Assembly (NCBI GenBank): GCA_905235675.1
Contig: CAJONC010000008.1
Location: 10,299 to 74,298 of the forward strand
From: an uncultured Bacteroidales bacterium
Lineage (GTDB): Bacteria > Bacteroidota > Bacteroidia > Bacteroidales > UBA932
Direction: 5' to 3'
Length of the DNA: 64,000 nucleotides
The position numbers and the translations under genes were made by a program. Below the pieces are notes generated by a model. That model was given only the letters and a program-made list of their open reading frames with translations, was not told the DNA's origin and did not search any database. Shown here one piece after another: positions 13,298 through 43,366 of the stretch (the stretch's first letter is position 1; every line of letters starts with the position of its first letter).

Positions 13298-13304
13298 TCG
13301 ACTA

Positions 13305-18284: not shown

Positions 18285-18290
18285 CGCGCT

Positions 18291-21812: not shown

Positions 21813-21815
21813 GAT

Positions 21816-24105: not shown

Positions 24106-24119
24106 TGGAGGTCAGAATA

Positions 24120-26060: not shown

Positions 26061-26064
26061 GAGT

Positions 26065-26199: not shown

Positions 26200-26212
26200 A
26201 ACATAGGCCAAG

Positions 26213-29062: not shown

Positions 29063-29065
29063 AAG

Positions 29066-30634
29066 ATGAGAAAAGTAATAGTAATACTGCTTGGAATACT
29101 GATTGTTTCCTGCACGGTTGACATTCAACCGGAGACAGAAAACAAAACTGTCACGATATGCGTAGGTTTGCCGGAAAACCTGACGGTAAAGTCCGTGCTT
29201 GGGGAAAAAAGTGCAGGAGAGTATCCGGTGCTATGGAACGAAGGCGATGCGATTCTTGTAAACGGAGTCGCCTCCAATCCGCTCAGCGCTTCTGAAGCAG
29301 GTGCTGCACAGGCTGAGTTTACTCTGCCATCCGGCATTATGCCTCCATACAACATAGTGTATGCAGGGTTCGAAGGTGAGGATGATCTTGTCTCCATCCC
29401 ATTCAGACAGGAAATAACCAGTTCCGGTAGTTTTGGTGATGATGTAGCACCAATGTGGGCAGTATCGGCAGACGGAGGGCCTTGTACGCTTGAACACCTT
29501 GCCGCTATCCTTTATGTTCCCGTAAATGGCAGTGGTACTGTAGCCCATATCAGAGTAAGTGCTGCAGGCGGAGAAACCATTGCCGGGGAATTCCTGCTTT
29601 CCAAAACTACCGGGAAGTTAAACGGAAGCATATCAAACATAAGGAGCCTTTCTGAGATATACCTTGTGACTTCCTCCGGAGTCGACCTCTCTGGTAGTGA
29701 CTATGTTTTTGTGGCGGCCGTTGCTCCGGGATGCTACTCTGAAGGCATTGATGTGCAGATTGTTACAACGGAAGGCCAAGTTATGCATATCAGTGCGTTG
29801 CGGGGGGAGTCCCTTGCCGCAGGAACTGTTTATGAGTTCCCTTCCAGTACTTTTTCTGCCGATGAAACGCTGTCCTGGGTCATTTCCTCCGAAAGCGATC
29901 TGGCTGCCTGGAGAAGCGCCCTTGATTCTTCCGATGAACTCGCGCTCTACGGCAGGGTAAGTCTCGCTGCCGATATCGACTTGTCCGAAGAGACTTGGAC
30001 TACACCGTTCAACGTTTACAACGGGACCCTTGACGGCTGCGGGCATAAGATAAGCGGGCTGTCCTGCCCCCTTTTCAACGTCCTGCACGGCTGCATCCTC
30101 AATCTTTCCATAGAAGGTAGTATTACAAGCATTCCGGACAACAGTTCTGCCGGACTGTTTGCACAGAGGATTAACACCAACGGCAATTACATCCCATGCA
30201 TAAGAAATTGCTTGGCGGAAGGCACCATTGACATTGCAGCAAATACAAGTGCTGCAACGGCTAATGCCGGAGGTATTGTGGGCTCGATGGAAAATGGAAG
30301 CATTGACGGTTGCAGGAGCGCAGTCTCGATTTCTGTTGCCGGGGTTACCGGAAAGGAGAAGATTCTTAATGCCGGAGGAATTGCAGGGAGTATGAGTTCG
30401 TCAGAAATAATCCAAAACTGCATTTCCCTGGCAAGTGTGAACGTCTCAGGAGTGGCTACTACTGTGAATGCAGGCGGTATTGTAGGATTGACAGATTCCC
30501 CCGTCGCCGGATGCATCAACCTCGGACGCATCCGCCAGGAAGCCACCGCATCTGCTTCCTCCAACAAAGGGGCGATTGCCGGTAAAACAAGCAGCAGTAT
30601 TGGCGGGTGCCTTTTCAGAGGTAACGTAATGTAA
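29066..30634 (+). CDS. lipoprotein: fimbrillin-like N-terminal domain plus GLUG-motif repeat C-terminal domain
   Basis: 522 aa, lipobox LIVSC. The C-terminus has repeated NAGGIVG / NAGGIAG / GAIAG (GLUG-like) units. Confidence 0.6.
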   Translation: MRKVIVILLGILIVSCTVDIQPETENKTVTICVGLPENLTVKSVLGEKSAGEYPVLWNEGDAILVNGVASNPLSASEAGAAQAEFTLPSGIMPPYNIVYAGFEGEDDLVSIPFRQEITSSGSFGDDVAPMWAVSADGGPCTLEHLAAILYVPVNGSGTVAHIRVSAAGGETIAGEFLLSKTTGKLNGSISNIRSLSEIYLVTSSGVDLSGSDYVFVAAVAPGCYSEGIDVQIVTTEGQVMHISALRGESLAAGTVYEFPSSTFSADETLSWVISSESDLAAWRSALDSSDELALYGRVSLAADIDLSEETWTTPFNVYNGTLDGCGHKISGLSCPLFNVLHGCILNLSIEGSITSIPDNSSAGLFAQRINTNGNYIPCIRNCLAEGTIDIAANTSAATANAGGIVGSMENGSIDGCRSAVSISVAGVTGKEKILNAGGIAGSMSSSEIIQNCISLASVNVSGVATTVNAGGIVGLTDSPVAGCINLGRIRQEATASASSNKGAIAGKTSSSIGGCLFRGNVM

Positions 30635-30635
30635 T

Positions 30636-32240
30636 ATGATGAAAAGACTGATTATAGTAATCGCAGTATTCGTGGTTTCCGTCCCTCTTTTCGCAAAAGG
30701 CGGAAAAACGGACTTCGCCTCTGTCCGTGCGCTCGCCGACAAAGGAGATCCGCGCGTAACCGACGTTCTTACGAACTATGTCTTTGCAGAGGACGTGACC
30801 GTGCTTCTGGAGACCGAGGTGAGGGAGAATCTGTATATTGAAGGATTTATAGTCGGCAGCCCCGCCATGTTTCCCAGAAATGAGAATCTTGAAATCGCAT
30901 GGCAATTAGGCTCAAAATCGGCTTCGCCAAAAAACAATGCACGAACCATGTATCTTGAAAGCCTTGATGGCAGATACGGGTTCAGGTTGTTCTTCGATAA
31001 TGCCGATGATGCAAAGAATGCCGGCAGGTTGTTTGGGATTCTTGAATTGAACCTGAAAGGAACGAAGTTGGTCAAAGAATATGACTATTATGTCATTACC
31101 GGTCTTACTTCCGATAATGTGATAGGTTACGAGAAGGGAACGGAAAGTGACATTCCGGCAAAGAAAAAGCACATTGCTGAACTTACGGACGATGATATTT
31201 TTACCTGGGTGGCGCTTCAGGACTGCGAGTTTGTGTTCAAGGGAGGCGCGTATATGAATGTACGCGAAACCTATCTTCCCAAGAGTAAGACAGGCCGTTA
31301 TACGGGCAATAACTGGATGAATAGTTGGAGGCGTCTGGTATATGATGCCAAAGGCAATTCTGTATATCTTGGCCTGGATGCTAAACTTTCCAACCGCCGT
31401 AATGGTGATGGAATACCTCAGGGATGCGGCGAAGTGGCAGGGGTTCTTACAAAGTCCTATATGCCGCGTTACGGGAAAGTCCGGGAATACACTCTGCGGC
31501 CTCCGTCCTTGGAGGAGGTGCGTTTTGCAAAAGGAGAGTCTTCGACATGGAAGACAATTGCCGGATGGGACTGGAATCGACCATCGGACGGTATTGTGCC
31601 TGCAGAGATCGGAAGAGGATTTATGACTACGGATTTTCAGGGCACCATAGGCCGTTTTTCGGATTGTGATAATCCTGTAATTGATCTGCCGGGAGAAAAA
31701 CCTGACACCCGAGGCACTTATGGCAGTGTAGAGAATGGAGCATTAAGTCTTAAAGGTCACACCTGCGATTGGTGGGATTGGACATCGGGAGAGCCCCGTT
31801 CGTTATCAATCGCTTTTTCGACAGCCGGTCTGCAGGGGGAGAGCATAGTATTCGCCTGGACTTTTGCAGCGGGACAGTACAGCCAGAAGACTTCATACGG
31901 ATATCCGCATAATTGGCAGGTCTCGTACTCTTTTGATGGAAAGAACTTCGTGACCATCCCGGAGTCTTTGGCAGAACTGCACAGTCTCCCTTATACTGCC
32001 GGGGAAGTCGATGGCAAATCATATGAAACATCTGCCGAGGCCGGAATCGGATACACTGAGCATCTTGTATGTATTCCTGCTTCTGCATTCGGCCGGCGCA
32101 AGGTGATTATACGTCTGTCTCCGGCGGACAGGACTGTCGCTGATATGGCTTACCTGCACAGGGACGTTCTTGAAGCAACGGAGGAGTCGCAATGGCCGTG
32201 TGTGGTAAATTTCGGAGAAATACAAGTAAGATACAGATAG
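30636..32240 (+). CDS. secreted hypothetical protein (possibly DUF5689 / choice-of-anchor-like)
   Basis: 534 aa with signal peptide MMKRLIIVIAVFVVSVPLFA and no catalytic motif that I recognise. The DUF assignment is a weak impression only. Confidence 0.4.
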   Translation: MMKRLIIVIAVFVVSVPLFAKGGKTDFASVRALADKGDPRVTDVLTNYVFAEDVTVLLETEVRENLYIEGFIVGSPAMFPRNENLEIAWQLGSKSASPKNNARTMYLESLDGRYGFRLFFDNADDAKNAGRLFGILELNLKGTKLVKEYDYYVITGLTSDNVIGYEKGTESDIPAKKKHIAELTDDDIFTWVALQDCEFVFKGGAYMNVRETYLPKSKTGRYTGNNWMNSWRRLVYDAKGNSVYLGLDAKLSNRRNGDGIPQGCGEVAGVLTKSYMPRYGKVREYTLRPPSLEEVRFAKGESSTWKTIAGWDWNRPSDGIVPAEIGRGFMTTDFQGTIGRFSDCDNPVIDLPGEKPDTRGTYGSVENGALSLKGHTCDWWDWTSGEPRSLSIAFSTAGLQGESIVFAWTFAAGQYSQKTSYGYPHNWQVSYSFDGKNFVTIPESLAELHSLPYTAGEVDGKSYETSAEAGIGYTEHLVCIPASAFGRRKVIIRLSPADRTVADMAYLHRDVLEATEESQWPCVVNFGEIQVRYR

Positions 32241-32243
32241 TTT

Positions 32244-33869
32244 ATGAGTTTACTGTCACTACTGTCTTCTGCCGTAATAGTAGCGGCATCGTCAATAACC
32301 CCTTGCAGGATAGAGTCTCCGCAAGTCGGGCTTGTCCTTGTTTCCGTTGAAGAAAAAACGCTTGACGGAGGCAGTACTGTCCGTACTTACAAGTATAATC
32401 TGGGCGATGGCATATTGAGGTTTGAAAAAGAGGAGGATTGCCGGAATATGGCCCGTCTCCCAAAGGGAGTGTGTGTGCCTCAGAAACTTGACACCCTTGT
32501 TTGTGCTCCAAGGATGTTCCATGGCCCGGATGGTGTCTTGAAAATGGCCGTGGCCGGTTTCAGGACAGGATTCTGTTATAGTCTGGAATCAACAGACGCC
32601 GGAGCATCCTGGAGCCTTCCCCGAAGGATGATACATAATCCTGACAAACCTTTCGATGTCTGCGATCTCCCGGGAGGAGATGTCCTTCTGGTAAAGAACT
32701 GCCGAATCGATGAAGTTGAGTTTACGAAGGATGACGAACTCTTTGCCTGCTGGTCGCACGATGGAGGGAATACCTGGTATAAAACACTGAAGATTTCAGG
32801 AGAAAAATTCATTGACAATCCGGTGTGCTGCTCCGATGCAGAGGGCAATGTTTATATTGCCTATAGGCATTATTATCAAAGAGAATGCGATATCAAATTG
32901 GTGCGGCTTGGCGCGGACGGCAGTCGCAGACGCATCCCTCTACTAAAAGCCAGGGATGCCGGCAGAGCATATATAGAAAGTGCCGGCCGTATACTTGAAC
33001 CAAAGAGCGAGTGGGTTGAAGACAAGTTGAGGATAGTTTCTTATAATACACTAAGGTCCAGTTTTACCGGAGGGCAGCCTTGGGTTCCTCGTTGCAAGAC
33101 TATTTGCGAACATATCGAAAAATGGGATCCGGATTTTATCGGAATGCAGGAAACATCCAAAGAGGATATTGCCGATCTTGACAGGACGCTGAGGAAAAAG
33201 TATGACTATATAGCGGTGACTCCGGAGATAATGGGGCCGGAGGTAAGCAGATTTCGTGCGACCAGCGAAATTCCGATATGGTGGCGCAAAGACAGGTTCA
33301 AACTTCTTCGCAAAGGATGGATAGAATTCAACATCATCAACGATGTAAAGTGTGGCGTGAATGTGAGCGATGAATCCTGGGGTAACGGCCAGGATGGCAA
33401 CAAGGCTGCAATCTGGGGGGTATTCCTGGACAAAAAGTCAGGAGAGGAGGTATGTGTCTTCAATCTGCACCTGCCTACCCGTACCGAGCCGTCGAAACTT
33501 GCAACTGCAAAGATGGTTGCAGAAAAAGTTCTGGAAGTATCGGATGGCAGACCTGTGTTCATTACAGGCGACTATAATATGGACGAGAAGGCATATACAT
33601 TCCAATATCTTCAGAATGATGTGGAGTATATACGTGATGCCGGACTTGCAGTTGCTCCTGAGCACCGCCGTAATTGGGAGTTCGCTTCTATGGGAGGAGA
33701 CAAACCTATGGAAAAGAAAACGAAGAACTCACTGCACATCGATCATATATTTTATACCCCGTCCAACTCGGAACCTTTAAGTTGGGAACTGGAAACATCT
33801 CATGGCTCCAACGGCTCTCACGGATCTGACCATCATCCTATTATGATTGAGTTCCGGTATGCTCGTTAA
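32244..33869 (+). CDS. fusion protein: BNR/Asp-box (sialidase-like) N-terminal region plus EEP-family C-terminal domain
   Basis: Asp-boxes SLESTDAGASW and SHDGGNTWY lie in the first ~265 aa. Then come the EEP motifs VSYNTL, IGMQET, TGDYNM, GSDHHPI. Confidence 0.75.
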   Translation: MSLLSLLSSAVIVAASSITPCRIESPQVGLVLVSVEEKTLDGGSTVRTYKYNLGDGILRFEKEEDCRNMARLPKGVCVPQKLDTLVCAPRMFHGPDGVLKMAVAGFRTGFCYSLESTDAGASWSLPRRMIHNPDKPFDVCDLPGGDVLLVKNCRIDEVEFTKDDELFACWSHDGGNTWYKTLKISGEKFIDNPVCCSDAEGNVYIAYRHYYQRECDIKLVRLGADGSRRRIPLLKARDAGRAYIESAGRILEPKSEWVEDKLRIVSYNTLRSSFTGGQPWVPRCKTICEHIEKWDPDFIGMQETSKEDIADLDRTLRKKYDYIAVTPEIMGPEVSRFRATSEIPIWWRKDRFKLLRKGWIEFNIINDVKCGVNVSDESWGNGQDGNKAAIWGVFLDKKSGEEVCVFNLHLPTRTEPSKLATAKMVAEKVLEVSDGRPVFITGDYNMDEKAYTFQYLQNDVEYIRDAGLAVAPEHRRNWEFASMGGDKPMEKKTKNSLHIDHIFYTPSNSEPLSWELETSHGSNGSHGSDHHPIMIEFRYAR

Positions 33870-34785
33870 CATTAAGTATATATTACCTCTGCTGATCTTG
33901 TTTTCCGGATGCGGGAAGACAGGTGATTCACCATCCTCCCCGGACAGTGAAGAAGAGGTGGAATACAAGGAAATCAGCGTAATGTCTTTCAATATCCTCG
34001 TGACTCACGCGGATGATGAAGGTGAGCAATTGTGGTCTGCAAGAATGCCCTCCTGCATAGAGATGATAAATGATGTGCAACCGGATATAATCGGCATTCA
34101 GGAATGCCGTCAGGCGCAATTTGAAGGGCTTGTCGCAGCATTGCCGGATTATGCGGCCGTCAATATTCCTGAAAGGCTGAAAAACTTCGGAACGTGTGTA
34201 TTCTACCGCAAAGATTGTTTCGATCGGTTCGGATCGGGTTATCTCTGGTTCAGTGATACTCCGTCAGTTCCTTCTCCGGCATACCCGCAGATATGCGACG
34301 ATCCGACTTACCGAACCTATATCTGGGCGGATTTGAGGCTTAAAGGAACGCAGAAAACACTGCGTATTTATAGTACTCATTTCCCCCGGAAATATACTAA
34401 TGACAATGCAGACGCCCGACATAAATGCGCGCAGGCTATGGTTGAACACGCAAAAAAGGAATGCGGAGACGATGCTACCGTATTTATTACCGGTGATATG
34501 AACTGCGCAATGTCAAATGAATCCGGAAGATACTGCCTGCTTCCATTTACCTCTTGGATGAAGTCGTCCAGGGAATCATTGCCCGACTCGAAGCGTGATG
34601 ATTATTATAGTATGAACAGTTTCGATGAAAGATCTCCCTTTTCCGGAGGAGAGAGGAGCATCGACCATATTTTCTACCGGGGTGCAGAGGCTCTCGCATA
34701 TCGTACTGTTGTGGAGCAGTATGGACTTGTGCGCTTTATGTCAGACCACTATCCGGTTTTAGGAAATTTTAACATAAGTTATTGA
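33859..34785 (+). CDS. EEP-family lipoprotein
   Basis: MLVNIKYILPLLILFSGC lipobox. EEP motifs MSFNIL, IGIQEC, TGDMNC, MSDHYPV. The track ORF starts at TTG 33847. Confidence 0.8.
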   Translation: MLVNIKYILPLLILFSGCGKTGDSPSSPDSEEEVEYKEISVMSFNILVTHADDEGEQLWSARMPSCIEMINDVQPDIIGIQECRQAQFEGLVAALPDYAAVNIPERLKNFGTCVFYRKDCFDRFGSGYLWFSDTPSVPSPAYPQICDDPTYRTYIWADLRLKGTQKTLRIYSTHFPRKYTNDNADARHKCAQAMVEHAKKECGDDATVFITGDMNCAMSNESGRYCLLPFTSWMKSSRESLPDSKRDDYYSMNSFDERSPFSGGERSIDHIFYRGAEALAYRTVVEQYGLVRFMSDHYPVLGNFNISY

Positions 34786-34786
34786 T

Positions 34787-35650
34787 ATGAAGAGGTTTAT
34801 TGCTATTCTGCTTTTTTCATTCCTGTTCTCTTTCTGTTCCAGCGCTCCGGCTGATGAGCAAAAGGTACAGAAGGCTGACATTGTTCGGGTTAGTGTCATA
34901 GGTGATTCCATATCCACTTTCGACGGGTGGATACCGAAGGGGTACAATTATCATTATCCATCAAGGGACGGCGCCCTGGTGAATGTCGCGGATACTTACT
35001 GGTATCGACTGATATACAAAAAGATGTCCAATGCGATGCTGGATAAAAACATATCGTTGTCTTCCAGTACCGTAACTAAGAATACCGAGGTGTCAAAAGA
35101 GAAGCATTATTATGGCAGGAGTTTTACGGAAAGATTTATCGCGCAGGATGGCGTCGGCAATCCGGATATTGTTATAATTCACGGAGGTACCAATGACCGA
35201 GGGCACAACGATTTTGAACTCTTTCCGGGTTCCGGGCCTTGCAAGACGGCCGCCTCTCCTATGGAGGGAGATTTGGATGAGGTGTTTGCCAGGGGAGATG
35301 CCGCAAGGACACGAAATGAGGTGGAAGCCCTTCCGGCAGACGATTTCTGCAGTGCGTATGTAAAACTGATCAGGTTGTTGCAGGAGAGAAATCCCAAAAT
35401 CAAGATTGTCTGCATAATAGGGGACTATATAACAGAAGGAGTGGAAGGCAGCATCCTGCAGGTGGCGGAACATTATGGTGCTAAGACGGTCAATCTGTTG
35501 AGAGTTAATGGTTTCAACGACCAAGTTTATATGCCCAAACACGATTGGAGTGAAAGCAACCCGAGCGGATGCCATCCCGGCATACAAGGAATGCATTTCA
35601 TTGCCGACAAGATTTATGATGAACTGGGGGTCTGGTTGGAATCGGAGTAA
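34787..35650 (+). CDS. SGNH/GDSL-family esterase
   Basis: Signal peptide. SGNH blocks VIGDSIS, GGTND and a C-terminal CHPG. Confidence 0.75.
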   Translation: MKRFIAILLFSFLFSFCSSAPADEQKVQKADIVRVSVIGDSISTFDGWIPKGYNYHYPSRDGALVNVADTYWYRLIYKKMSNAMLDKNISLSSSTVTKNTEVSKEKHYYGRSFTERFIAQDGVGNPDIVIIHGGTNDRGHNDFELFPGSGPCKTAASPMEGDLDEVFARGDAARTRNEVEALPADDFCSAYVKLIRLLQERNPKIKIVCIIGDYITEGVEGSILQVAEHYGAKTVNLLRVNGFNDQVYMPKHDWSESNPSGCHPGIQGMHFIADKIYDELGVWLESE

Positions 35651-35667: not shown

Positions 35668-38600
35668 ATGAGAATCAAAGCATTCCCTGCAGCCATTTTC
35701 ACCGCTGCCTTCTTATTGATTGTTTCTTGTGCAGGAAGACAGACTTCCGTGTCGGACAATCTGCGACAGTCTTTCGCAAATCCTCCCCAAAGTGCCCGGC
35801 CTATGGTATGGTGGCACTGGATGAACGGCAATATTTCTCCGGATGGATTAAGGAAAGACATTATGTGGATGCATCGCATCGGCATCGGCGGATTTCATAT
35901 CTTCGATGCCGGTTTGGATACTCCACAAATAACAGAAAGTCGCCTCGATTTTATGAGCCCCGAGTGGAAAGAAACTTTGAACGGTGCGGTTGCACTTGCC
36001 GACTCGCTCGGGATGGAGGTTGCGGTGGCAGCCTCTCCGGGATGGAGTTGCACCGGAGGCCCATGGGTGAGCGAAGAAGACGCTATGAAGAAACTGGTCT
36101 GGAGAAATATGCAGGTAGATGGAGGCAAGCATTATCACGGTCCGCTTCCCGAGCCATATACTATGAGCAGCAGATTCCAGAATGTCCCTCTGCCTTATGA
36201 ACACAATCATCATCAGGATGGCCCGATTCCGGAGTGGTATTACAAGGACATCGCTGTCTATGCTGTCAGATTGCCGTCATCTTTTGCATCTATGGAGGAA
36301 CTTGGGGCAAAGGTCAGCGACAATGGAGGCAATGGGCCATTCTACTGGATACAATATGAATTCCCGCAGCAGCAGAGTTTCAGGGCTGTATCTGTCGTGA
36401 ACGCAAAGGCGAGAAGCGGAGGGCACGCAATCCCGGCTAAATGCAAGGATTCTCTTCAGATCAGTGACGACGGACTCCATTTCCATACTTTGTGTGGCAT
36501 TACAGTCGGGGCGGCCCAGCAGCAGACAGAATGCATTCCCTATGCCGAGGCTCGCTTTTGGAGGCTCAAACGACCGAATTCCGGATATGCTGCAATCAAT
36601 CCGGAAGATTATATCCTGCATAAACATACACCCATAAATCACTATGAAGAGAAAGCCGGTTTCGCCTATACCTGCGACCTTATGAATTATCCGACACCTC
36701 CGGAGGCGGAAGCCTGTGAGGTGATCGATATTACCGCCAATTACAAGAATGGAATACTTGACTGGGACGCCCCTGAAGGCAGATGGATGATTTATCGTTT
36801 CGGTTGTTCGCTTACCGGCAAGAAGAACCATCCGGCATCTGCCGAAGCAACCGGTCTTGAGGTGGACAAACTGGATAAGACTGCCTTTGCCCGTTATCTG
36901 CACCACTACCTCGATATGTATAATGATGCGACCGGGGGAAGACTTGGTAAAACAGGTATACGATATCTGATGATTGACAGTTACGAATCCGGAGCCCAGA
37001 ACTGGACGTCCTCGCTTCCGGAAGAATTCAAGTTGAGAAGGGGGTATGATATGATGCCCTGGTTGCCTGCTGTCGCTGGTGTCGTCATCGGAGATACGGA
37101 GCAGACAGAACGATTCCTTTGGGATTTCCGTCGCACCATCGGAGAACTCTTTGCCGAGAACTACGATAATGCTACGGAGATAGTTCGGCAGGACTACGGT
37201 ATGGATGGCATCTTCATTGAGTCACACGAACACGGAAGAAACTGCCCGGCGGACGGAATGTCAATCAAGAAAAGTGCATCTTACCCGATGTCGGCAATGT
37301 GGATGGAGGGGAGTGGCGCTGTGAACCGTGTCGCTGAAGGTAAGGCGGATATACGGGAGTCTGCATCAGTAGCCCACATTTACGGGCAGAACCTTGTTGC
37401 AGCGGAATCTCTGACGATTTCCGGCCTTGGAGGAAAAGCATTTAGTTATTATCCCGGCAATTTGAAGCACGCGGCAGATTTGGAGATGGGTGCCGGGGTA
37501 AACCGTTTCGTCATACACGAAAGTGCACATCAGCCTTCGGACGATAAAGTGCCCGGAATAGGCCTCGGACATTACGGACAGTGGTTCAACAGGCACGAAA
37601 CGTGGGCTGAACTCGCCGGACCGTGGATTGACTACCTGAGCCGCAGTTGTGCACTTCTCCAGCAGGGCAGGTATGTCGCTGATTATCTCTATTACTATGG
37701 CGAGGATACCAATGTCACTGCACAGTTCAGCCAATCCGAACTCAAGGCCCCTTTCGGCTATGGGTACGATTTCATCGGGCCGGAGGCTCTGCTCAAAGAG
37801 TTGAAAGTCCGGCAGGGAAAACTGGTAACTTCTACCGGTATGGAGTATTCTACTCTATTTGTGGGAGGTGATGGCTTGAGAATGTCGAAAGAGGTGAGAG
37901 AACGTATCAACTCATTCAAAAAATCCGGGATAAGGGTATTGGAGGGGACAGAAGTGCATTATGTGAAGAAAACTATCGAACCCGACCTGATTCTTTCTGA
38001 CGCTGGTGATATGCAGTTTGTGCACAGGACTGCCCCGGATGCAGAGATATATTGGATATGCAATTCTATGGACTGCCTACGCACTCAGGAGGCATCTTTC
38101 CGGATCAGCGGACGAAAACCGCGCCTCTGGCATCCGGAAACGGGAACAATCAGCGACCTGCCTTATCGTTTTGCTGATGGCAGGACATATATTTCTTTGA
38201 AGTTCGCTGGGGATGAAGCGTATTTCGTTGTTTTCGAAGAACAGGTTAAGGACTCTTCCTTTGATGTTGCGGAAGAAGTCTTGATAGACAGTACTCCTGT
38301 CTGCGGTCCGTGGGAAGTGTCTTTCAACCTGAAGACGGGAGCCCCTGCGCATATCCTTATGCCTGAACTGTCATCATGGACCGAGTCTTCCAGCCCTGAA
38401 ATCAAATATTATTCCGGAACGGCCAAATATAGGAAGACTTTCAACTTCCGTCCCGACGGGGGCCGTTATGTTCTGAATCTTGGGAAGGTAGGCAGTATCG
38501 CTTGCGTGAATATGAATGGGCAAGACTTGGGCCAGTGTTGGAAATCTCCTTATGAGATGGATATCACCGGGGCTCTTCGCGCCGGGGAAAATACAATGGA

Positions 38601-38757
38601 GATATCAGTAACAAATCTATGGGTGAATCGTTTGATAGGAGATGCCGGCAGGAAAAACCGGAAGACATATTATTCGTATGATTTCTATAAAGCAGACGAC
38701 CCTCTGCTCCCTTCGGGCTTGATGGGGCCGGTCAGCATTGATAAATATGACCTTCAT
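35668..38757 (+). other. domain: GH106-like (alpha-L-rhamnosidase-like) glycoside hydrolase region (approximate bounds)
   Basis: PPQSARPMVWWHWMNGNISPDGLRKDIMWMHRIGIGGFHIFD at the N-terminus and NLWVNRLIGD...LPSGLMGPV at the end, as in the Bacteroidales GH106-like family. Recognised from memory. Confidence 0.5.
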
Positions 38758-40707
38758 CCCCGGTTCTCTGATTTTGATAATCCGGATTTTGCCAAAATGA
38801 TTTTTGACAATCCCGTATTTGCCAGTCTGAATGCAACTCCGTACGATGAATTGGGGCGCCCCGATTCTGATACTCCGGCTCCAACAGGCTACAAGCCGGT
38901 ATATATCAGCCATTATGGACGTCACGGGGCGCGGTCTGGCAGCCCCGGGAGCAAGGACCTCCAAAGTTTTATAAATCTTGAAAAAGCATTGACCAATGCA
39001 TCAGTTGCCGGGATTCTCACCCCGGAAGGGAAGGAATTGCTTGTGGAGGTTCGAAAAGTTATTGCGGCTACGGACAATATGGAAGGGCGTCTGACCGAGC
39101 GAGGAAAGCGGGAACATTCGGGCATTGCAGAAAGGATGTATCGGCGTTTTACTCCGGTTTTCAAAGATGGGAGCAGAAAGGTTTATGCCCTTGGAAGCGA
39201 ATATCCTCGCTGCCTGATCAGTATGGCTTCTTTTACTGGACAGTTGAACAAGATGGATCCGTCTCTTGAGATAAAGTTGAATTCCGGCCCGGAATATCAG
39301 AAAATCATACACAATACGGCCACTCCGGAAGTGAGGGAGAAGCGCATCCGTGCGATTGACTCCTTGCTTGCGCTTGTCCGTCCCGAGACTAAAGAACTGA
39401 TGGACAGATTGTTTACGGACCCCGATGCGGCAAGCGATTTTGTGCCGGATCCGGTAGAAATGTCACGCTGGATCTTCCGTGCCGGAAGAATTTCAGGTGG
39501 CTTTGATATAAAAGAGAATATTTTCCGGCATCTGCCATTCAAGACTCTGTATGCCTGGGCAGATTTCTATAATTCCACAATTTATATCGGACACGGAAAT
39601 TCCTTTGAATTCGGGGATGACCGTATGTCGCAGACCAGACTGTTGGTAAACGACATCGTAAACCGGGCCGATGATGCACTCAATACGGGCAATTTGGCGG
39701 CGGATCTGCGCTTCGGGCACGATTTTACTCTGCTTGCTTTATGTGCAAGGATGGGGATGGCTGGTGTTAGTGAAAGGTACGATTATGAAGGATCAAGGAA
39801 GCACTTCATTTGCAGTAAACTGATTCCTTTTGCCGCTAATCTGCAACTGGTTTTCTATAAAAAGAAAGATGCTCCTGTGCTGGTAAAATGCTTGTTGAAC
39901 GAAAGAGAAATGACCATCACCGGGCTGGAGCCTGTGAATGGGGTCTATTACAGATGGGAAGACTTGCGCGCCACTCTTGTTCCATCTGATGATTTCTGTC
40001 TGGAAGCACACCGTGGAATCAGCAACCGGTATCCCGAGAACACTATCCTTGCTTTCAAAGAAGCAGCATCGGTTCACAGATATGTGGGGATGGAAACCGA
40101 TGTGCAGATGACTTCCGACGGGGTGCTGGTTATAATGCACGATGATACGGTAGAACGCACTACTGACGGAATCGGAATGGTGTCGGACTATACCTGGAAG
40201 GAACTCTCGCGCCTCCATATTGACGGAGGATATGGCTGGGACGAAAGATTTAAAGGCAAACTTCATATCCCATTGTTTACCGATTATCTCAAGATCTGCC
40301 GTGAAGGCGGTCTTGTTCCATATGTGGAACTGAAATTGCTGACCGACGAGGGTATCGCCAAGACCATAGAGACGCTTCATTCAGAGGGATTCTCGGATGA
40401 TGATTATGTCTTGACTTCATTCAACAGACATTATGTTGATTATGCCGGAACTCTCTGTTCTGCAAAAAGGGAGTTTATGAAGGGCGGACGTTTCACGCAC
40501 GAAGATCTCGCATCTATGGTTGGCTCCGGGCTTGTAGTACGACCGGATTGTCGCAAGATAAATCAGGCTCTGGTGGACGAGTGCCGTGCGCTGGGTCTTG
40601 AACTGGAAGCATATGGCCTCCCTGTTGGGGATGCGTCTTTGCTTGCGAACCTGAAGGCGTGGGGAGTGAAAGGCGTAACCTGCAATGATTGGCTGAATTT
40701 ATTATGA
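35668..40707 (+). CDS. 1,679-aa tri-domain lipoprotein: GH106-like glycosidase plus histidine acid phosphatase plus glycerophosphodiester phosphodiesterase
   Basis: Lipobox LLIVSCAG. See the three domain sub-features below. It is one uninterrupted ORF. ATG at 35668 (track TTG at 35659). Confidence 0.85.
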   Translation: MRIKAFPAAIFTAAFLLIVSCAGRQTSVSDNLRQSFANPPQSARPMVWWHWMNGNISPDGLRKDIMWMHRIGIGGFHIFDAGLDTPQITESRLDFMSPEWKETLNGAVALADSLGMEVAVAASPGWSCTGGPWVSEEDAMKKLVWRNMQVDGGKHYHGPLPEPYTMSSRFQNVPLPYEHNHHQDGPIPEWYYKDIAVYAVRLPSSFASMEELGAKVSDNGGNGPFYWIQYEFPQQQSFRAVSVVNAKARSGGHAIPAKCKDSLQISDDGLHFHTLCGITVGAAQQQTECIPYAEARFWRLKRPNSGYAAINPEDYILHKHTPINHYEEKAGFAYTCDLMNYPTPPEAEACEVIDITANYKNGILDWDAPEGRWMIYRFGCSLTGKKNHPASAEATGLEVDKLDKTAFARYLHHYLDMYNDATGGRLGKTGIRYLMIDSYESGAQNWTSSLPEEFKLRRGYDMMPWLPAVAGVVIGDTEQTERFLWDFRRTIGELFAENYDNATEIVRQDYGMDGIFIESHEHGRNCPADGMSIKKSASYPMSAMWMEGSGAVNRVAEGKADIRESASVAHIYGQNLVAAESLTISGLGGKAFSYYPGNLKHAADLEMGAGVNRFVIHESAHQPSDDKVPGIGLGHYGQWFNRHETWAELAGPWIDYLSRSCALLQQGRYVADYLYYYGEDTNVTAQFSQSELKAPFGYGYDFIGPEALLKELKVRQGKLVTSTGMEYSTLFVGGDGLRMSKEVRERINSFKKSGIRVLEGTEVHYVKKTIEPDLILSDAGDMQFVHRTAPDAEIYWICNSMDCLRTQEASFRISGRKPRLWHPETGTISDLPYRFADGRTYISLKFAGDEAYFVVFEEQVKDSSFDVAEEVLIDSTPVCGPWEVSFNLKTGAPAHILMPELSSWTESSSPEIKYYSGTAKYRKTFNFRPDGGRYVLNLGKVGSIACVNMNGQDLGQCWKSPYEMDITGALRAGENTMEISVTNLWVNRLIGDAGRKNRKTYYSYDFYKADDPLLPSGLMGPVSIDKYDLHPRFSDFDNPDFAKMIFDNPVFASLNATPYDELGRPDSDTPAPTGYKPVYISHYGRHGARSGSPGSKDLQSFINLEKALTNASVAGILTPEGKELLVEVRKVIAATDNMEGRLTERGKREHSGIAERMYRRFTPVFKDGSRKVYALGSEYPRCLISMASFTGQLNKMDPSLEIKLNSGPEYQKIIHNTATPEVREKRIRAIDSLLALVRPETKELMDRLFTDPDAASDFVPDPVEMSRWIFRAGRISGGFDIKENIFRHLPFKTLYAWADFYNSTIYIGHGNSFEFGDDRMSQTRLLVNDIVNRADDALNTGNLAADLRFGHDFTLLALCARMGMAGVSERYDYEGSRKHFICSKLIPFAANLQLVFYKKKDAPVLVKCLLNEREMTITGLEPVNGVYYRWEDLRATLVPSDDFCLEAHRGISNRYPENTILAFKEAASVHRYVGMETDVQMTSDGVLVIMHDDTVERTTDGIGMVSDYTWKELSRLHIDGGYGWDERFKGKLHIPLFTDYLKICREGGLVPYVELKLLTDEGIAKTIETLHSEGFSDDDYVLTSFNRHYVDYAGTLCSAKREFMKGGRFTHEDLASMVGSGLVVRPDCRKINQALVDECRALGLELEAYGLPVGDASLLANLKAWGVKGVTCNDWLNLL
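38758..39990 (+). other. domain: histidine acid phosphatase (branch 2) (approximate bounds)
   Basis: YISHYGRHGARSGSP (RHGxRx motif, about 38920) and LRFGHDFTLLAL (HD motif, about 39715). Confidence 0.7.
39991..40704 (+). other. domain: glycerophosphodiester phosphodiesterase (GDPD) (approximate bounds)
   Basis: LEAHRGISNRYPENTILAFKEA...GMETDVQMTSDGVLVIMHDDTVERTTDG matches the canonical GDPD HRG / E.D / HD pattern. Confidence 0.8.
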
Positions 40708-42206
40708 AAAGAATTATAACTTTTTTTGTTGCACTGGCAGTGTGTGTGTCAGTCTTTGCAAGGGGTAATGACAAGGTCCTGTTCGGAGGAGAGATGCACA
40801 ATTCCAATTCCACGACACCTGAATCGCTGGAATCATCATTCCTCCTCGCCCGTGTACTTGGATTCAATGCCGTTCTTGCAGCGGTGCCCTGGGACATTGT
40901 GGAGCCGGAAGAGGGAACGTTCAACTTTGGGATAGTGGACAATATCATCGCTTCCGCAAAAAAGAATAATCTGCTGGTAGGAATCCTGTGGTTCGGCAGT
41001 TATAAGAACGGAGAATCATCCTATGCGCCTCTGTGGGTGAAACGCGATACACGGAAATACTTCCGATGCGCAGACTCCGAAGGAAAAGCAAGTACAACAA
41101 TTTCTCCGTTCTGCACCGCTGCACAGAAAGCCGATGCTGTCGCATTTTCACGTCTGATGGCATATATCCGCGACAATGATCAAGAAAGGCGCATCTGTGT
41201 CGTGCAAGTTGAAAACGAGGTAGGCGCCTTTATGGAGAGGGATATGTGTCCTGCTGCCATGAAGGCATGGGAAAGGTGCAAGTGGTCGAAAAGTTCGGAT
41301 ATGCTTGCTCCGCAGCATTTTATGGCGGAGGCTTTTGCCGGTTATGTGGATGCTGTTGCGGAGGCCGGGAAAAAAGAGTACGACATTCCGATGTTTGCAA
41401 ACGCATGGTTGAAAGTTGCAGACGCTCCCTATGGATCATATCCTAACGGGGGACCTCGAATTGCGGTGCTGGATACTTGGAAAGCAAGGGTGAAACATCT
41501 TGACTGGCTTTCTCCTGACATCTATGACCCGGGATTTGCAGAACTTTGCGACCCTTATTCTCAGGGACAGCCTCTTTTTATCCCTGAAACCCGGCGCGAA
41601 ATTGGCCGTTACTATTATGCTTTCGGAGAAAAAAGGGCCAAAGGAGTGTTTTCCTTTGGTTTTGAAGAGTCATATGACGACCCTTATTACTCCGTTGAAT
41701 GCAGGACATTTTCGGAAATACTTCCTTTTTTGGATGCAGATCTTCCTTCCCGAGGATTTTTCCGAGAACCCGGGGTCGTGGCTCCGGGAGATTCTCTGAA
41801 TCTGTCTCTCGGTGGATATACCTTCTGCATCCACTATATCGAAGGGGAAAAGAATGCCCATGGAATAATCATACAGACTGACAAAGATGAATTTGTTGTG
41901 GCTGGAGTGGGCGCATGGATCGACTTTTCCTCTATTCCCGGGGAGGAGTGCAAGATTGCCGTTTGCGAAGAATTGACTGAAGGGAGAGTAAGCCAGATAC
42001 TGAATGGGGACGAAACCGGACATCACAATATGCTGTACCTTCGTGGCCGTTTGCATCTGGACAACTACACCGCTCCGGACGGAGTGGTGAATCCGGCTCC
42101 GGATTACGGGCTTTCGTACCAGAGACGTTTCTGGTCCTCGGCGCATGAGCGTTTCAAGACATCAGGGATATATCGTGTAAAACTCTATAGCTATCCTTCA
42201 AGATGA
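40704..42206 (+). CDS. secreted GH35/GH42-like glycoside hydrolase (DUF5597-type beta-galactosidase-like)
   Basis: Signal peptide MKRIITFFVALAVCVSVFA. TIM-barrel-like VPWDIVEPEEGTFNF and VQVENEVG (catalytic NE) motifs. The ATG overlaps the stop of the preceding gene (ATGA). Confidence 0.6.
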   Translation: MKRIITFFVALAVCVSVFARGNDKVLFGGEMHNSNSTTPESLESSFLLARVLGFNAVLAAVPWDIVEPEEGTFNFGIVDNIIASAKKNNLLVGILWFGSYKNGESSYAPLWVKRDTRKYFRCADSEGKASTTISPFCTAAQKADAVAFSRLMAYIRDNDQERRICVVQVENEVGAFMERDMCPAAMKAWERCKWSKSSDMLAPQHFMAEAFAGYVDAVAEAGKKEYDIPMFANAWLKVADAPYGSYPNGGPRIAVLDTWKARVKHLDWLSPDIYDPGFAELCDPYSQGQPLFIPETRREIGRYYYAFGEKRAKGVFSFGFEESYDDPYYSVECRTFSEILPFLDADLPSRGFFREPGVVAPGDSLNLSLGGYTFCIHYIEGEKNAHGIIIQTDKDEFVVAGVGAWIDFSSIPGEECKIAVCEELTEGRVSQILNGDETGHHNMLYLRGRLHLDNYTAPDGVVNPAPDYGLSYQRRFWSSAHERFKTSGIYRVKLYSYPSR

Positions 42207-43366
42207 AAATAGTTAAGCTAAGCCTGTTTGTGAAGGTCCTCATTGCGATTATTCTTGGTTCCTTGCTGGGTCTGGTCGCTCCGGATGTGCTTGTGCGCAT
42301 TTTCAAGACATTCAATGTGCTGTTTGCGCAGATACTCCGTTTCATAGTGCCTTTGCTGGTGCTGGGGCTGGTTACTCCTGCCATCTACAATCTCGGCAAA
42401 GGGGCCGGAAAGATGCTGCTTATAGTAGTGGCAGTGGCCTATGTGTCTACCGTTTTTGCGGGACTGTTCGCATATGGATGCTCCGGCGCGTTGTTCCAGA
42501 GTATAATTCCTATAGGGGATTTGTCGTCAGGCACTGTCGATACCAAGTCTTTCGCTCCGTATATCGATTTGAAGATTGCCCCGTTATGTGATATCCTGAC
42601 CGCTCTCTGTCTTTCCTTTATGACGGGAATATGCTGCATATACATAAAAGGACAGGCCCTGCGTGGATTCTTTGACGAATTTGGGGAGGTGGTCAAAATG
42701 ACTATCGAAAAAGCCATTATTCCACTGATGCCGGTTTATATCTTTACAATGATGTGTGAGATGAGTGCAGCGGGAAAACTTGCTGTTGTTATGGGGGCTG
42801 GAGTAAAGGTGATTCTTACAGGTGTAACCCTCTCGATACTTTATTTGATAATACAGTATGCGGTTGCAGGAGCAATTGCCGGCAAGAATCCATTCAAGTG
42901 CCTTTGGAATATGCTCCCGGCTTATTTAACAGGCTTCTCTATTTGCTCTTCATCAGCAGTAATCCCTGTTACCCAAAGATGTACTCTCAAGAACGGCGTT
43001 TCAGAGGAAGTTGCAAATTTCGTCATACCGCTATGCTCGAACGTGCACATGTGCGGCTCTGTTATCAAATTGGCTACCACTTCAGTGGCAGTTGCACTGA
43101 TGATGGGTACGCCCATAAGTTTCCCTGTTTTCCTGAATTTCGTACTGATGCTGGCGGTTGCGACCGTAGCGTCTCCAGGCGTGATGAGCGGTGTGCTTAT
43201 GACCTCTGTCGGTCTGCTGGAATCGATGCTCGGATTTTCCCCTGAAATGACTGCCCTCTTGATGGCGATTTACCTGGCTCTTGATGGATACGGGCCCGCC
43301 TGCAATGTTACCGGCGACGGAGCCATCGCCCTTGGCGTAGACCGATTTTTCAAGAAAATGGATTAA
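42203..43366 (+). CDS. dicarboxylate/amino acid:cation symporter (SDF/DAACS family)
   Basis: 387 aa, polytopic, with SDF-like reentrant-loop motifs (SSSAVIPV, PGVMSGV, NVTGDGA). ATGA overlap with the upstream gene. Confidence 0.75.
   Translation: MKIVKLSLFVKVLIAIILGSLLGLVAPDVLVRIFKTFNVLFAQILRFIVPLLVLGLVTPAIYNLGKGAGKMLLIVVAVAYVSTVFAGLFAYGCSGALFQSIIPIGDLSSGTVDTKSFAPYIDLKIAPLCDILTALCLSFMTGICCIYIKGQALRGFFDEFGEVVKMTIEKAIIPLMPVYIFTMMCEMSAAGKLAVVMGAGVKVILTGVTLSILYLIIQYAVAGAIAGKNPFKCLWNMLPAYLTGFSICSSSAVIPVTQRCTLKNGVSEEVANFVIPLCSNVHMCGSVIKLATTSVAVALMMGTPISFPVFLNFVLMLAVATVASPGVMSGVLMTSVGLLESMLGFSPEMTALLMAIYLALDGYGPACNVTGDGAIALGVDRFFKKMD

Follow-up and report, generated by a model that had tools for sequence, protein, structure and literature searches.

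The window, the 64,000-nucleotide stretch of an uncultured Bacteroidales contig analysed here, contains a locus with the organization of a PUL: behind the genes for an ECF sigma factor, FecR, SusC and SusD come 14 co-directional genes (Table 1). Near nt 13996 a frameshift interrupts the anti-sigma gene. One of the 14 encodes a lipoprotein that joins a GH106 module, a histidine phosphatase and a GDPD. It lies in this run between the SGNH esterase gene, from which it is separated by 17 nt, and the GH35-like gene, which probably starts at the ATG at 40704 and so overlaps the fusion stop. A scan for sigma-70 promoters and terminators across the fusion gene, ill-suited to Bacteroidota promoters, returned counts near the shuffled expectation.

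Table 1. Features of the locus and of the fusion lipoprotein, in window positions
Feature	Position	Strand	Basis or remark
ECF sigma factor (13278-13859) and FecR-type anti-sigma factor	13278..14868	+	
SusC-like TonB-dependent transporter and SusD-like lipoprotein	14865..20051	+	
BACON-like 127-aa lipoprotein, Big_2 lipoprotein, 710-aa lipoprotein	20059..23948	+	
Two paralogous lipoproteins, 654 and 659 aa, without Pfam family	24096..28192	+	49% identical
EEP (283 aa), 522-aa unknown lipoprotein, DUF5689-like 534-aa protein, BNR+EEP (541 aa), EEP (312 aa), SGNH/GDSL esterase (287 aa)	28211..35650	+	
GH106 - histidine phosphatase - GDPD fusion lipoprotein, whole ORF	35668..40707	+	1,679 aa plus stop
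Signal peptide and lipobox LIVS-C, Cys21	35668..35730	+	read from sequence
GH106 module, residues 22-1030	35731..38757	+	Pfam PF17132, 894 bits; NCBIfam rhamnoside_JR, 141 bits
MINPP-like branch-2 histidine acid phosphatase, residues 1037-1440	38776..39987	+	phmmer, AF2/Foldseek, orthologue alignment
GDPD phosphodiesterase, residues 1441-1679	39988..40704	+	PF03009, orthologue alignment, Foldseek
GH35-like/DUF5597 glycosidase and SDF-family symporter	40689..43366	+	

The surroundings of the gene recur elsewhere. The SusC/SusD pair is 78-79% identical to the pair adjoining the 59% orthologue in a related locus (L001), in which the BACON-like, Big_2 and 710-aa lipoproteins are all kept beside P0003. 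The SDF symporter shares 68-70% identity with symporters found beside GDPD homologues in seven other loci, and homologues of the 654- and 659-aa lipoproteins adjoin the GH106 clade in other loci. Across related loci the conserved neighbours are SusC/D, EEPs, DUF5689/BACON proteins and the SDF symporter. Searches of NCBIfam and Pfam with the five unknown lipoproteins of the locus gave almost no matches; weak, sub-threshold PMP-repeat and pectate-lyase-like matches in the 710-aa protein suggest a β-helix. A His_Phos_2 gene on the opposite strand (47502-48968, -) was considered as a paralogue of the phosphatase module and proved unrelated on comparison.

Two of the three EEPs are informative with respect to function. 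The 312-aa EEP and the EEP module of the BNR protein have as nearest structure, at modest similarity (E-values of 1e-15 and 5e-12), PDB entry 4c1r, which we take to be BT3783, the mannosyl-6-phosphatase of the Bacteroides thetaiotaomicron yeast-mannan PUL; its role there was reportedly described by Cuskin et al. in 2015. The 283-aa EEP gives only a weak, uninformative match to CCR4 in the PDB. The mannan PUL resembles the locus described here in being a SusC/D locus in which glycosidases cooperate with an EEP-family phosphatase, as they do because phosphate diesters and monoesters block exo-glycosidases. It differs in that its enzymes are separate proteins and include neither a GDPD nor a histidine phosphatase.

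The DUF5689-like neighbour invites comparison with ddbABCDEF of the gut Bacteroidales, a PUL-like system for a phosphodiester polymer with a TonB-dependent transporter, DUF5689 proteins and secreted phosphodiesterases, whose transporter is proposed to work with DdbD as its DNA-binding partner (bioRxiv 10.1101/2025.03.18.642099). By analogy the locus might serve utilization of nucleic acids or polyanions, with the EEPs as nucleases and the fusion processing nucleotide-like or polyol-phosphate fragments. In favour of this, the 534-aa protein and its homologues carry the DUF5689 family of DdbD, and an S1-P1 nuclease gene is present in a related locus (L050). However, the ddb system acts on DNA, has no glycosidases and no SusD, and pairs its transporter with the DUF5689 protein instead, whereas the locus in the window has a true SusD and is rich in glycosidases. 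In addition the 534-aa protein scores 16.8 bits with DUF5689, short of the threshold of 28.6, and a sugar-6-phosphatase is the closest match for the EEPs. Membership of the ddb type is rejected on this evidence, and we judge a role in nucleic-acid or polyanion utilization very improbable.

A three-module lipoprotein

The initial annotation had described one uninterrupted ORF with a lipobox and three catalytic modules, and the ORF reading together with profile and structure matches bears this out. The ORF begins at 35659 (TTG) or 35668 (ATG) and continues without interruption to 40707 on the + strand, its length of about 5 kb being far above chance expectation. Counted from the ATG at 35668, where the 91% orthologue (P0001) also starts, the protein has 1,679 residues. 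All of the signature motifs quoted for the modules are found in the translation: PMVWWHWMNGN (residues 45-55) for GH106, RHGARSG (1085-1091) and GHD (1350-1352) for the histidine phosphatase, then HRG (1448-1450), PENT (1456-1459), ETDVQ (1476-1480) and HDD (1491-1493) for the GDPD. The junctions, estimated at about 38750 and 39990, are located near nt 38776-38788 and 39988.

Could the fusion be an artefact, either a chimeric contig or a concealed frameshift, or might one module be a dead binding domain? The sole point in support is that Pfam His_Phos_2 (PF00328) scores the phosphatase module at 20.7 bits, under the gathering cut-off of 23.6. Against this, four collinear orthologues with 59-91% identity come from independent metagenome assemblies and align with short, conserved junctions, and several independent ENA and Logan assemblies together yield at least five protein clusters with the three modules in this collinear arrangement. 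Chimeric assembly and frameshift, which the annotation had raised as concerns, are thereby excluded. Degeneracy of the catalytic residues, a further concern, is not seen; those of all three modules are intact and invariant across the aligned orthologues, and the AF2 model of the phosphatase has high confidence. We regard the artefact or dead-module explanation as essentially refuted already. From their sequences all three modules look catalytically active.

The architecture appears not to have been described, as the annotation had supposed. Only three of 1.84 billion representative proteins combine this phosphatase with this GDPD, and the three-module proteins have no NCBI or UniRef source and no name. 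A search of 185,579 GTDB species genomes, using the phosphatase and GDPD part as query, returned only relatives of the GDPD clade and no three-module gene. Literature searches on 7R5Y, on teichoic acid with PULs, on exopolysaccharide with rhamnosidase and phosphate, and on DUF5689 turned up no description of the architecture or of this type of locus, but led to the ddb preprint and to a paper on a GlcNAc-PDase. The fusion is a new domain architecture made from known families.

Cys21 of the lipobox is invariant in all five orthologues. In the Bacteroidota, acidic residues at positions +2 to +5 after this cysteine signal export to the cell surface. The residues that follow here (CAGRQTS) include no acidic one at these positions, so that surface export is not predicted and the lipoprotein probably faces the periplasm.

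The three modules

The N-terminal module comprises a (β/α)8 catalytic barrel with an inserted β-sandwich, followed by a C-terminal jelly-roll. The initial annotation had called it GH106-like. The family assignment stands, the qualification does not: the PF17132 score of 893.8 bits lies above the cut-off of 29 and, judged by sequence, the module is a true member of GH106, of RHA-P type. It matches PDB entry 6q2f, presumably RHA-P of Novosphingobium sp. PP1Y, with an E-value of 6e-215 over residues 27-176, 314-751 and 770-1024, and BT0986 (5mqm) with an E-value of 2e-126 over residues 10-681. In BT0986 the catalytic acid is Glu461, the base Glu593 and the calcium ligands are Asp458, Ser459 and Glu538 (PMC6828813). 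Asp458, Ser459, Glu461 and Glu593 map onto Asp437, Ser438, Glu440 and Glu580 of the fusion, all invariant in five of five orthologues. The position of Glu538 falls within an invariant ESHEH segment (Glu518, His520, Glu521) where the exact residue match is approximate, and Glu561 of BT0986 aligns with Ala543, an alanine also in RHA-P. The catalytic acid, base and calcium-binding Asp-Ser pair are thus the same as in RHA-P and BT0986 (5MQM/5MWK). Those enzymes, in contrast, have one activity each and about 1,100 residues, with no phosphatase or phosphodiesterase, and their substrates, flavonoid rhamnosides and rhamnogalacturonan-II, are phosphate-free. A relative in which the phosphatase precedes GH106, with a GH106 part 53% identical to the present module, is encoded directly upstream of rhaB-rhaA-rhaT-rhaD (L050); this neighbourhood gives indirect support for L-rhamnose release and for α-L-rhamnosidase activity.

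For the phosphatase module, the sub-threshold Pfam score is accompanied by clear matches to known structures. A phmmer search of the PDB finds full-length MINPPs (7r5y, E 6e-36), and the AF2 model, with pLDDT above 90, superposes on 7r5y with a TM-score of 0.88 in Foldseek. In precomputed annotation PF00328 is assigned to relatives with 43-59% identity. The RHGxRxP motif is present as RHGARSG, the final proline being replaced by glycine, and the GHD lies downstream. The residues of note are Arg1085, His1086, Gly1087, Arg1089, Arg1181, His1351 and Asp1352; Arg1085, His1086, Gly1087, Arg1089, His1351 and Asp1352 are invariant among the orthologues. The Prevotella sp. CAG:617 MINPP (7R5Y) and BtMINPP (4FDT) share the fold (TM-scores 0.82-0.88), the RHGxR nucleophile motif and a proton-donor histidine at the same position. 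They differ in sharing only 23-28% identity, in having HAE where the module has HD, and in lacking its place within a glycosidase fusion. The HAE proton-donor tripeptide of MINPPs is absent from the module, which has HDF instead, and three residues of BtMINPP, Arg183, Arg275 and Gln276 (mutated in PDB entries 9qyv-9qyy), are not conserved, being His, Thr and Ile, an approximate assignment that comes from a pairwise alignment with 5cu7 at 23% identity. The module is MINPP-like, yet without the HAE motif and two arginines that bind InsP6. The HD motif, the loss of the BtMINPP specificity residues and the fusion partners suggest a glycan or polyol phosphomonoesterase and not a phytase. We caution that the nearest solved relatives in Foldseek are phytases and not sugar phosphatases, which counts against this reading.

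The GDPD module scores 94.5 bits with PF03009 (cut-off 23.6). Its residues of note are His1448, Arg1449, Glu1457, Asn1458, Glu1476, Asp1478, His1491, Asp1492, Glu1554 and Lys1556, and His17, Arg18, Glu44, Asp46, His59 and Glu119 of the T. tengcongensis enzyme (TtGDPD) correspond to His1448, Arg1449, Glu1476, Asp1478, His1491 and Glu1554, all invariant. AF2 confidence over the N-terminal third of the barrel is only 50-77. The TIM-barrel is shared with Bacillus subtilis GlpQ (5T91/5T9B) and TtGDPD (2PZ0), with TM-scores of 0.72-0.79 relative to the target, and their metal-binding and catalytic residues are all kept, at approximately 27-28% identity. The module differs from both in forming the C-terminal part of a 1,679-residue lipoprotein. 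GlpQ is described as a teichoic-acid-degrading diesterase (PMC7086022).

Recurrent fusions of the same clades

Standalone relatives with 50-68% identity exist for each module, as the annotation had implied in noting that such modules are otherwise separate proteins: GH106 proteins of about 1,065 residues (64% identity), phosphatases of about 430 residues (52%) and GDPDs of about 245-270 residues (up to 68%). The same clades have also been fused repeatedly. The phosphatase is joined to GH106 in both orders and to the GDPD at least three times (P0365, P0412 and the clade of the present protein), and is found with a NAGPA phosphodiester glycosidase, with GH20 and with EEP plus GH28. The GDPD clade, which is restricted to the Bacteroidales and recurrently fused to glycosidases or a sulfatase, is joined to GH13, to GH97 plus GH13 and to a sulfatase, the last being genuine as it carries the SAPSR motif. 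These partners, together with GH106, suggest glycan-linked diesters as the GDPD target.

Do the modules act on one substrate? They might instead serve unrelated ones, such as rhamnosides from plants, diesters of phospholipid head groups and various phosphomonoesters from which phosphate is scavenged, with fusion giving only co-expression and co-localization. Each module is indeed common as a standalone enzyme. In a neighbour-joining tree of GH106 modules, calculated without support values, fused and unfused forms are interleaved; the fusion is therefore dispensable and the architecture, the tree suggests, labile. Standalone GDPDs of Alistipes adjoin an SSF transporter and an aminotransferase and not a SusC/D locus, and a standalone phosphatase (P0126) has a non-PUL context. 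Most GDPD-clade relatives are standalone, several of them outside SusC/D loci, and this also weighs against our preferred explanation. Set against these points, the same clades have been fused independently, in varied orders and combinations and always with glycan-active partners. The junctions between modules are short and conserved, the fusion gene lies within the single co-directional run with the gap and overlap already described, and co-occurrence with EEP and SusC/D genes is conserved. That these enzyme clades were joined repeatedly and independently, in differing orders, lends real support to the proposal in the initial annotation that the modules share a substrate, and we consider the use of unrelated substrates unlikely.

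Candidate substrates and role

We moderately favour an explanation in which the fusion finishes imported fragments of a rhamnose-bearing phosphodiester glycopolymer, with three independently active hydrolytic sites working on one substrate. The SusC/D transporter, under control of the ECF sigma factor, would import fragments of a phosphodiester-containing, rhamnose- and galactose-bearing, O-acylated glycopolymer. The GH106 module would act as an inverting, calcium-dependent exo-α-L-rhamnosidase to remove terminal L-rhamnose, the GDPD as a metal-dependent phosphodiesterase cutting alcohol-phosphate, probably glycerol-phosphate, diesters, and the phosphatase as a sugar or polyol phosphomonoesterase clearing the monoesters left by the GDPD or by the three EEPs of the locus. 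The enzyme would thereby take off groups that block one another, holding three sequential activities on a single substrate molecule. In the sequence that the initial annotation proposed, a sugar substituent would go first, a glycerophospho-diester would be cut next and the resulting phosphomonoester removed last; both this order and the glycerophospho nature of the diester are tentative. One difficulty concerns the pairing of GDPD and phosphatase. After cleavage by a GlpQ-type GDPD the phosphate stays with glycerol and not with the glycan, so that the logic of cutting a diester and then a monoester on the glycan may fail; the phosphatase may instead take as substrate glycerol phosphate, or phosphates that the neighbouring EEPs expose.

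The most likely source of such a polymer is the envelopes of other gut microbes, with glycosylated teichoic acids, rhamnose wall polysaccharides decorated with glycerol phosphate, or phosphorylated capsules and exopolysaccharides as candidates. The sulfatase partner of the GDPD counts against a teichoic acid since sulfate is not a feature of these polymers.

A different target, which we consider distinctly unlikely, would be an inositol-phosphate glycoconjugate such as the glycosyl-inositol-phosphoceramides of plants and fungi, GPI anchors (those of arabinogalactan proteins, for example) or actinobacterial phosphatidylinositol mannosides. Cleavage of inositol- or ethanolamine-phosphodiesters would then fall to the EEPs and GDPD, removal of inositol phosphate groups to the MINPP-like module and trimming of the glycan to the glycosidases. 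Consistent with this, the solved structures closest to the phosphatase are those of inositol polyphosphate phosphatases (7r5y, 4fdt), and sphingomyelinases and inositol phosphatases both belong to the EEP superfamily. Some GDPD loci of Alistipes have one to three MINPP-like genes close by, and GH35, GH27, GH36 and sulfatase companion genes in related loci would suit arabinogalactan proteins. However, the phosphatase has HD in place of HAE and, in the 23%-identity alignment, histidine, threonine and isoleucine in place of the three BtMINPP residues; its closer relatives have NAGPA, GH20 and GH28 as fusion partners, none of them inositol enzymes. The GDPD module scores as PF03009 and not as PI-PLC, and for the two informative EEPs the closest match is a mannosyl-6-phosphatase.

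To our knowledge little is known of how gut Bacteroidales clear phosphates from glycans beyond the yeast-mannan phosphatase. The fusion and the recurrent joining of phosphatases or phosphodiesterases to glycosidases provide a concrete candidate set of enzymes for removing glycan phosphate, and they flag a recurrent type of locus with SusC/D, DUF5689, EEP, GDPD and SDF components. Should the substrate be a teichoic acid or other Gram-positive wall polymer, the locus would give Bacteroidales a route to recycle the biomass of their neighbours, and the enzymes would be useful in the analysis of phosphorylated glycans.

More tentatively, and with considerable doubt, the fusion might be a Rosetta stone for an uncharacterized class of Bacteroidales loci that consume the phosphodiester-bridged or -decorated glycopolymers of other microbes. 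Such loci would combine SusC/D, DUF5689 proteins as polyanion binders, EEPs acting as diesterases or phosphatases, GDPD diesterases, MINPP-like glycan phosphatases and glycosidases specific for the substituents (GH106, GH13, GH97, GH35 and GH36), variously fused, and the envelope polymers already named (glycosylated teichoic acids, wall polysaccharides of rhamnose with glycerol phosphate, phosphorylated capsules) would be their candidate substrates. Uncharacterized proteins, namely a GH97-GDPD-GH13 fusion of 1,465 residues from Bacteroides sp. CAG:709 (FR882200.1, L008) and GDPD-GH13 fusions, belong to the same GDPD clade, at 54-58% identity. They differ in having α-glucosidase-type partners where the present protein has a rhamnosidase, and in having no histidine phosphatase, but lie in a locus with SusC/D, DUF5689, EEP and SDF genes, like the surroundings of the fusion gene.

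The three-module protein and its orthologues

The fusion gene is a single uninterrupted ORF, as the initial annotation proposed, and encodes 1,679 residues counted from the ATG, a start shared with the 91%-identical orthologue P0001. Every sequence motif quoted there is present in the translation. Pfam locates GH106, GH2-type jelly-roll and GDPD domains (Table), and NCBIfam a rhamnosidase jelly-roll domain (141 bits). The His_Phos_2 match, at 20.7 bits, is under the Pfam gathering score of 23.6. The phosphatase assignment stands nonetheless, because phmmer against the PDB aligns this module with full-length MINPPs (7r5y, E 5.9e-36; BtMINPP 4fdt, E 3.8e-27) and an AF2 model of residues 1028-1679 (mean pLDDT 88.7, pTM 0.72, phosphatase part mostly >90) superposes on 7r5y, the MINPP of Prevotella sp. 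CAG:617, with a TM score of 0.88. The C-terminal part of the model superposes on Bacillus subtilis GlpQ and T. tengcongensis GDPD (TtGDPD) with TM scores of 0.72-0.79.

Are the module junctions true sequence, or artefacts of assembly that might hide frameshifts? A search of 5.8 billion proteins identified the collinear three-module proteins P0001, P0002 (69% identity), P0003 and P0004 (both 59%), with P0005 a fragment. Contigs from three separate samples encode P0003, and one from a fourth sample encodes P0001; tblastn places the three modules in one frame with their order kept. In the five-protein alignment both junctions are short, conserved and free of gaps, "LPSGLMGPV.I..Y" leading into "NPDFA" between GH106 and phosphatase, and "WEDLRA.L.PSDDFCLEAHRG" joining phosphatase to GDPD. 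This conservation and collinearity in one frame rule out both a chimeric assembly and a concealed frameshift.

In the Bacteroides thetaiotaomicron GH106 enzyme BT0986 the catalytic acid is E461, the base E593, and calcium is bound by D458, S459, E538 and sometimes E561 (PMC6828813). HMMER alignments map D458, S459, E461 and E593 to D437, S438, E440 and E580 of the fusion protein, all invariant across orthologues, whilst E561 is replaced by A543, exactly as in RHA-P. In the phosphatase module R1085, H1086, G1087, R1089, R1181, H1351 and D1352 are invariant in the five-protein alignment, though HD takes the place of the HAE of MINPPs. BtMINPP residues R183, R275 and Q276 correspond to H, T and I, assignments that are approximate given the low identity of the alignment. 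TtGDPD residues H17, R18, E44, D46, H59 and E119 match H1448, R1449, E1476, D1478, H1491 and E1554, again invariant. Catalytic residues are thus retained in all three modules, and, with collinear orthologues from independent samples, the suggestion of an artefact or a dead module is refuted. The lipobox cysteine, C21, is also invariant and is followed by AGRQTS. An acidic patch after this cysteine is the surface-export mark of Bacteroidota lipoproteins; its absence suggests that the protein faces the periplasm.

All three modules belong to known families, and PULs commonly encode enzymes with several catalytic domains; the novelty lies in joining glycosidase, histidine phosphatase and GDPD, a combination that is very rare, unnamed and found only in metagenomes. 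The three-module and GH106-phosphatase proteins found all derive from ENA or Logan metagenome assemblies, none with an NCBI or UniRef source or name, and the three-module gene was not found in one genome per species from 185,579 species. With the phosphatase-GDPD part as query, an exhaustive phmmer search of 1.84 billion representatives returned only three proteins matching across both modules: the three-module clusters P0005 and P0003, and P0365, a 659-aa phosphatase-GDPD protein of 35% identity. No description in the literature and no named database entry was found, in keeping with the earlier view that the architecture is undescribed.

Recurrent fusion of the module clades

The modules also occur alone. 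Standalone relatives of GH106 are about 1,065 aa (61-65% identity; P0011 verified on a 59-kb contig), those of the phosphatase about 425 aa (identity about 50%, members of a large family in Bacteroidales) and those of the GDPD about 245-270 aa (identity up to 68%); unfused secreted enzymes of the GDPD clade occur in the genomes of about 23 species. In a neighbour-joining tree of GH106 modules, calculated without support values, fused and unfused forms interleave, which suggests that the architecture is labile.

P0006 and P0007 carry the phosphatase C-terminal to GH106, the arrangement of the window protein. P0023-P0031 have it on the N-terminal side, with an identity of only 36-39%, which points to an independent fusion. 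The phosphatase clade is further fused in P0412 (GDPD-DUF4996-phosphatase, a different GDPD in reverse order), P0366 (phosphatase-GH20), P0499 (phosphatase-EEP-GH28), P0439 (NAGPA "phosphodiester glycosidase"-phosphatase) and P0389 (second phosphatase copy plus MetallophosN domain). The GDPD clade of the window protein is fused to GH13 in four loci (L005, L020, L030, L031) and to a sulfatase with the canonical SAPSR formylglycine motif in three (L015, L024, L028). A GH97-GDPD-GH13 protein from a public genome, Bacteroides sp. CAG:709 (FR882200.1), has a GDPD of this clade too and parallels the window fusion in having three modules, here glycosidase-phosphodiesterase-glycosidase. Enzymes that act on glycans are regular fusion partners of both the phosphatase and the GDPD clade, in a type of locus that is uncharacterised.

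Such repeated fusion of the same clades, whatever the order, is a classical sign of functional coupling, of which the NAGPA-phosphatase and phosphatase-EEP-GH28 proteins are good examples. The modules might instead act on unrelated substrates, their fusion serving co-expression only, as the many standalone forms would allow; this is unlikely, since the clades have fused independently time after time and their place in the locus is conserved.

The locus and its relatives

Features of the fusion protein, the window and related loci (L handles)
Sequence	Position	Feature	Remark
Fusion protein	38-758	GH106 (PF17132)	Pfam, 893.8 bits
Fusion protein	905-995	GH2-type jelly-roll	Pfam
Fusion protein	1448-1569	GDPD (PF03009)	Pfam, 94.5 bits
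Window	11491-13215 (-)	574-aa lipoprotein	two tandem alpha/beta-hydrolase esterase domains
Window	13278-43366	SusC/D locus	GC 0.47-0.51
Window	13865-14868	FecR-type anti-sigma gene	frameshift near nt 13996 splits reading frame
Window	24096-26060, 26213-28192	tandem paralogous lipoproteins	49% identical
Window	30636-32240	534-aa protein	DUF5689, sub-threshold (16.8 bits)
Window	35659 (TTG) or 35668 (ATG)-40707 (+)	fusion gene	
Window	40689-42206	GH35-like gene	
Window	43444-46566 (+)	1,040-aa protein	TMEM260-like (O-mannosyltransferase-like)
Window	47502-48968 (-)	487-aa His_Phos_2 protein	no detectable similarity to fusion's phosphatase module
Window	54783-63939	second, unrelated PUL	MFS transporter, SusC, SusD, 891-aa protein with five CBM26 starch-binding modules
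L004	15041-15285	74-aa ORF	
L008	8015-12412	GH97-GDPD-GH13	1,465 aa
L020	2040-6691	BACON+DUF5689 homologues of the 534-aa protein	next to GDPD gene
L024	499-2919	806-aa ORF	MFS_2 sugar transporter plus GH5 cellulase domain
L024	8411-10708	sulfatase-GDPD	
L050	10001-19078	P0030 (phosphatase-GH106, 1,454 aa) and rha genes	

The fusion gene is about the fifteenth in a co-directional run of about seventeen; a gap of 17 nt separates it from the gene before, and its stop overlaps the start of the gene after. The order is ECF sigma factor, FecR anti-sigma factor, SusC, SusD, BACON-like 127-aa protein, Big_2 lipoprotein, 710-aa lipoprotein (weak PMP-repeat/beta-helix-like matches), paralogous 654- and 659-aa lipoproteins, EEP, 522-aa lipoprotein, 534-aa protein, BNR+EEP, second EEP, SGNH esterase, fusion gene, GH35-like/DUF5597 enzyme and SDF symporter. 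The paralogous lipoproteins belong to no Pfam family, one having only a weak FISUMP-domain match, and might bind glycans or represent a new family of enzymes. The anti-sigma orthologue in L001 matches one window frame over residues 3-46 and another over 48-337; the frameshift reflects either an error of sequencing or genuine damage to the gene, which could release the sigma factor and leave the locus constitutively expressed. The GC content of the housekeeping flanks (LepA, UbiA, PGK) is 0.52-0.57, a contrast that suggests horizontal acquisition.

The closest PDB entry to two EEP modules is 4c1r, named mannosyl-6-phosphatase (E 1.9e-15 and 5e-12), and a sugar-specific EEP phosphodiesterase is known (PMC10704324). 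Homologues of the 534-aa protein adjoining GDPD genes, 27% identical, are BACON+DUF5689 proteins with above-threshold matches. DUF5689 is the family of DdbD, proposed as the DNA-binding partner of a Bacteroides DNA-uptake transporter (preprint, bioRxiv 10.1101/2025.03.18.642099). A nucleic-acid utilisation system like ddb is nevertheless highly improbable with SusD, glycosidases and sugar-phosphatase-like EEPs in the locus.

The neighbours of P0003 include sigma, anti-sigma, SusC, SusD, BACON-like, Big_2 and 710-aa genes, 53-80% identical to those of the window. In L004, which encodes P0001, only a small ORF separates the fusion gene from the symporter and, unlike in the window, there is no GH35-like gene. 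L041 (standalone GH106) and L045 (GH106-phosphatase) both encode SusC/D, 654/659-aa homologues and a 45%-identical EEP, the former with GH78 and GH27, the latter with GH35 and a Metallophos enzyme. Fused GDPD relatives have SusC/D alongside, as do P0241 and P0243, the closest of the standalone forms; several of these loci have one or two BACON+DUF5689 proteins, EEPs and an SDF symporter (68-70% identical), and some GH97, GH13, GH36 or a PMP beta-helix protein. In L050 the reverse-order fusion lies directly upstream of rhaB, rhaA, rhaT and rhaD and adjoins a SusC/D locus with a 125-aa protein, Big_2, S1-P1 nuclease, GH3 and a WbsX-like gene. This rha operon is the best indirect evidence that the GH106 clade would release L-rhamnose.

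Probable function and potential substrates

We consider the protein to be, probably, a three-site finishing enzyme for imported fragments of a phosphodiester-bearing glycopolymer. The locus would bring in fragments carrying L-rhamnose, galactose, O-acyl groups and phosphodiesters. The GDPD module would cut alcohol-phosphate diesters, glycerol-phosphate being the simplest case, the MINPP-like module would remove phosphomonoesters left by GDPD or EEPs, and GH106 would remove terminal rhamnose; we infer both the sequence of the steps and which bonds are cut. A GlpQ-like GDPD would release glycerol-3-phosphate, in which case the phosphatase would act on that product or on EEP-made sugar phosphates rather than on a GDPD-made glycan phosphate.

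MINPP similarity might point to inositol-phosphate glycoconjugates (GIPC, GPI, PIM). Such a target seems rather improbable, as the MINPP specificity residues are lost and the fusion partners are of glycan type. For the glycopolymer reading, the predicted repertoire covers rhamnose, alpha- and beta-galactose, alpha-glucose, glycerol-phosphate, sugar phosphates and acyl esters, with a putative DUF5689-type polyanion binder. Structures that fit occur in glycosylated teichoic acids, glycerol-phosphate-decorated streptococcal rhamnose polysaccharides, lactococcal and enterococcal wall polysaccharides and phosphorylated capsules; microbial envelope polymers are, tentatively, the best fit to this repertoire.

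The sulfatase-GDPD locus L024 also encodes GH36, a PMP-repeat beta-helix protein, SusC/D, two DUF5689 proteins and an EEP. Its sulfatase-GDPD fusion is a misfit for teichoic acids, so loci of this family extend beyond any single polymer. The MFS_2-GH5 ORF in this locus could be an odd fusion or two genes merged by sequencing error.
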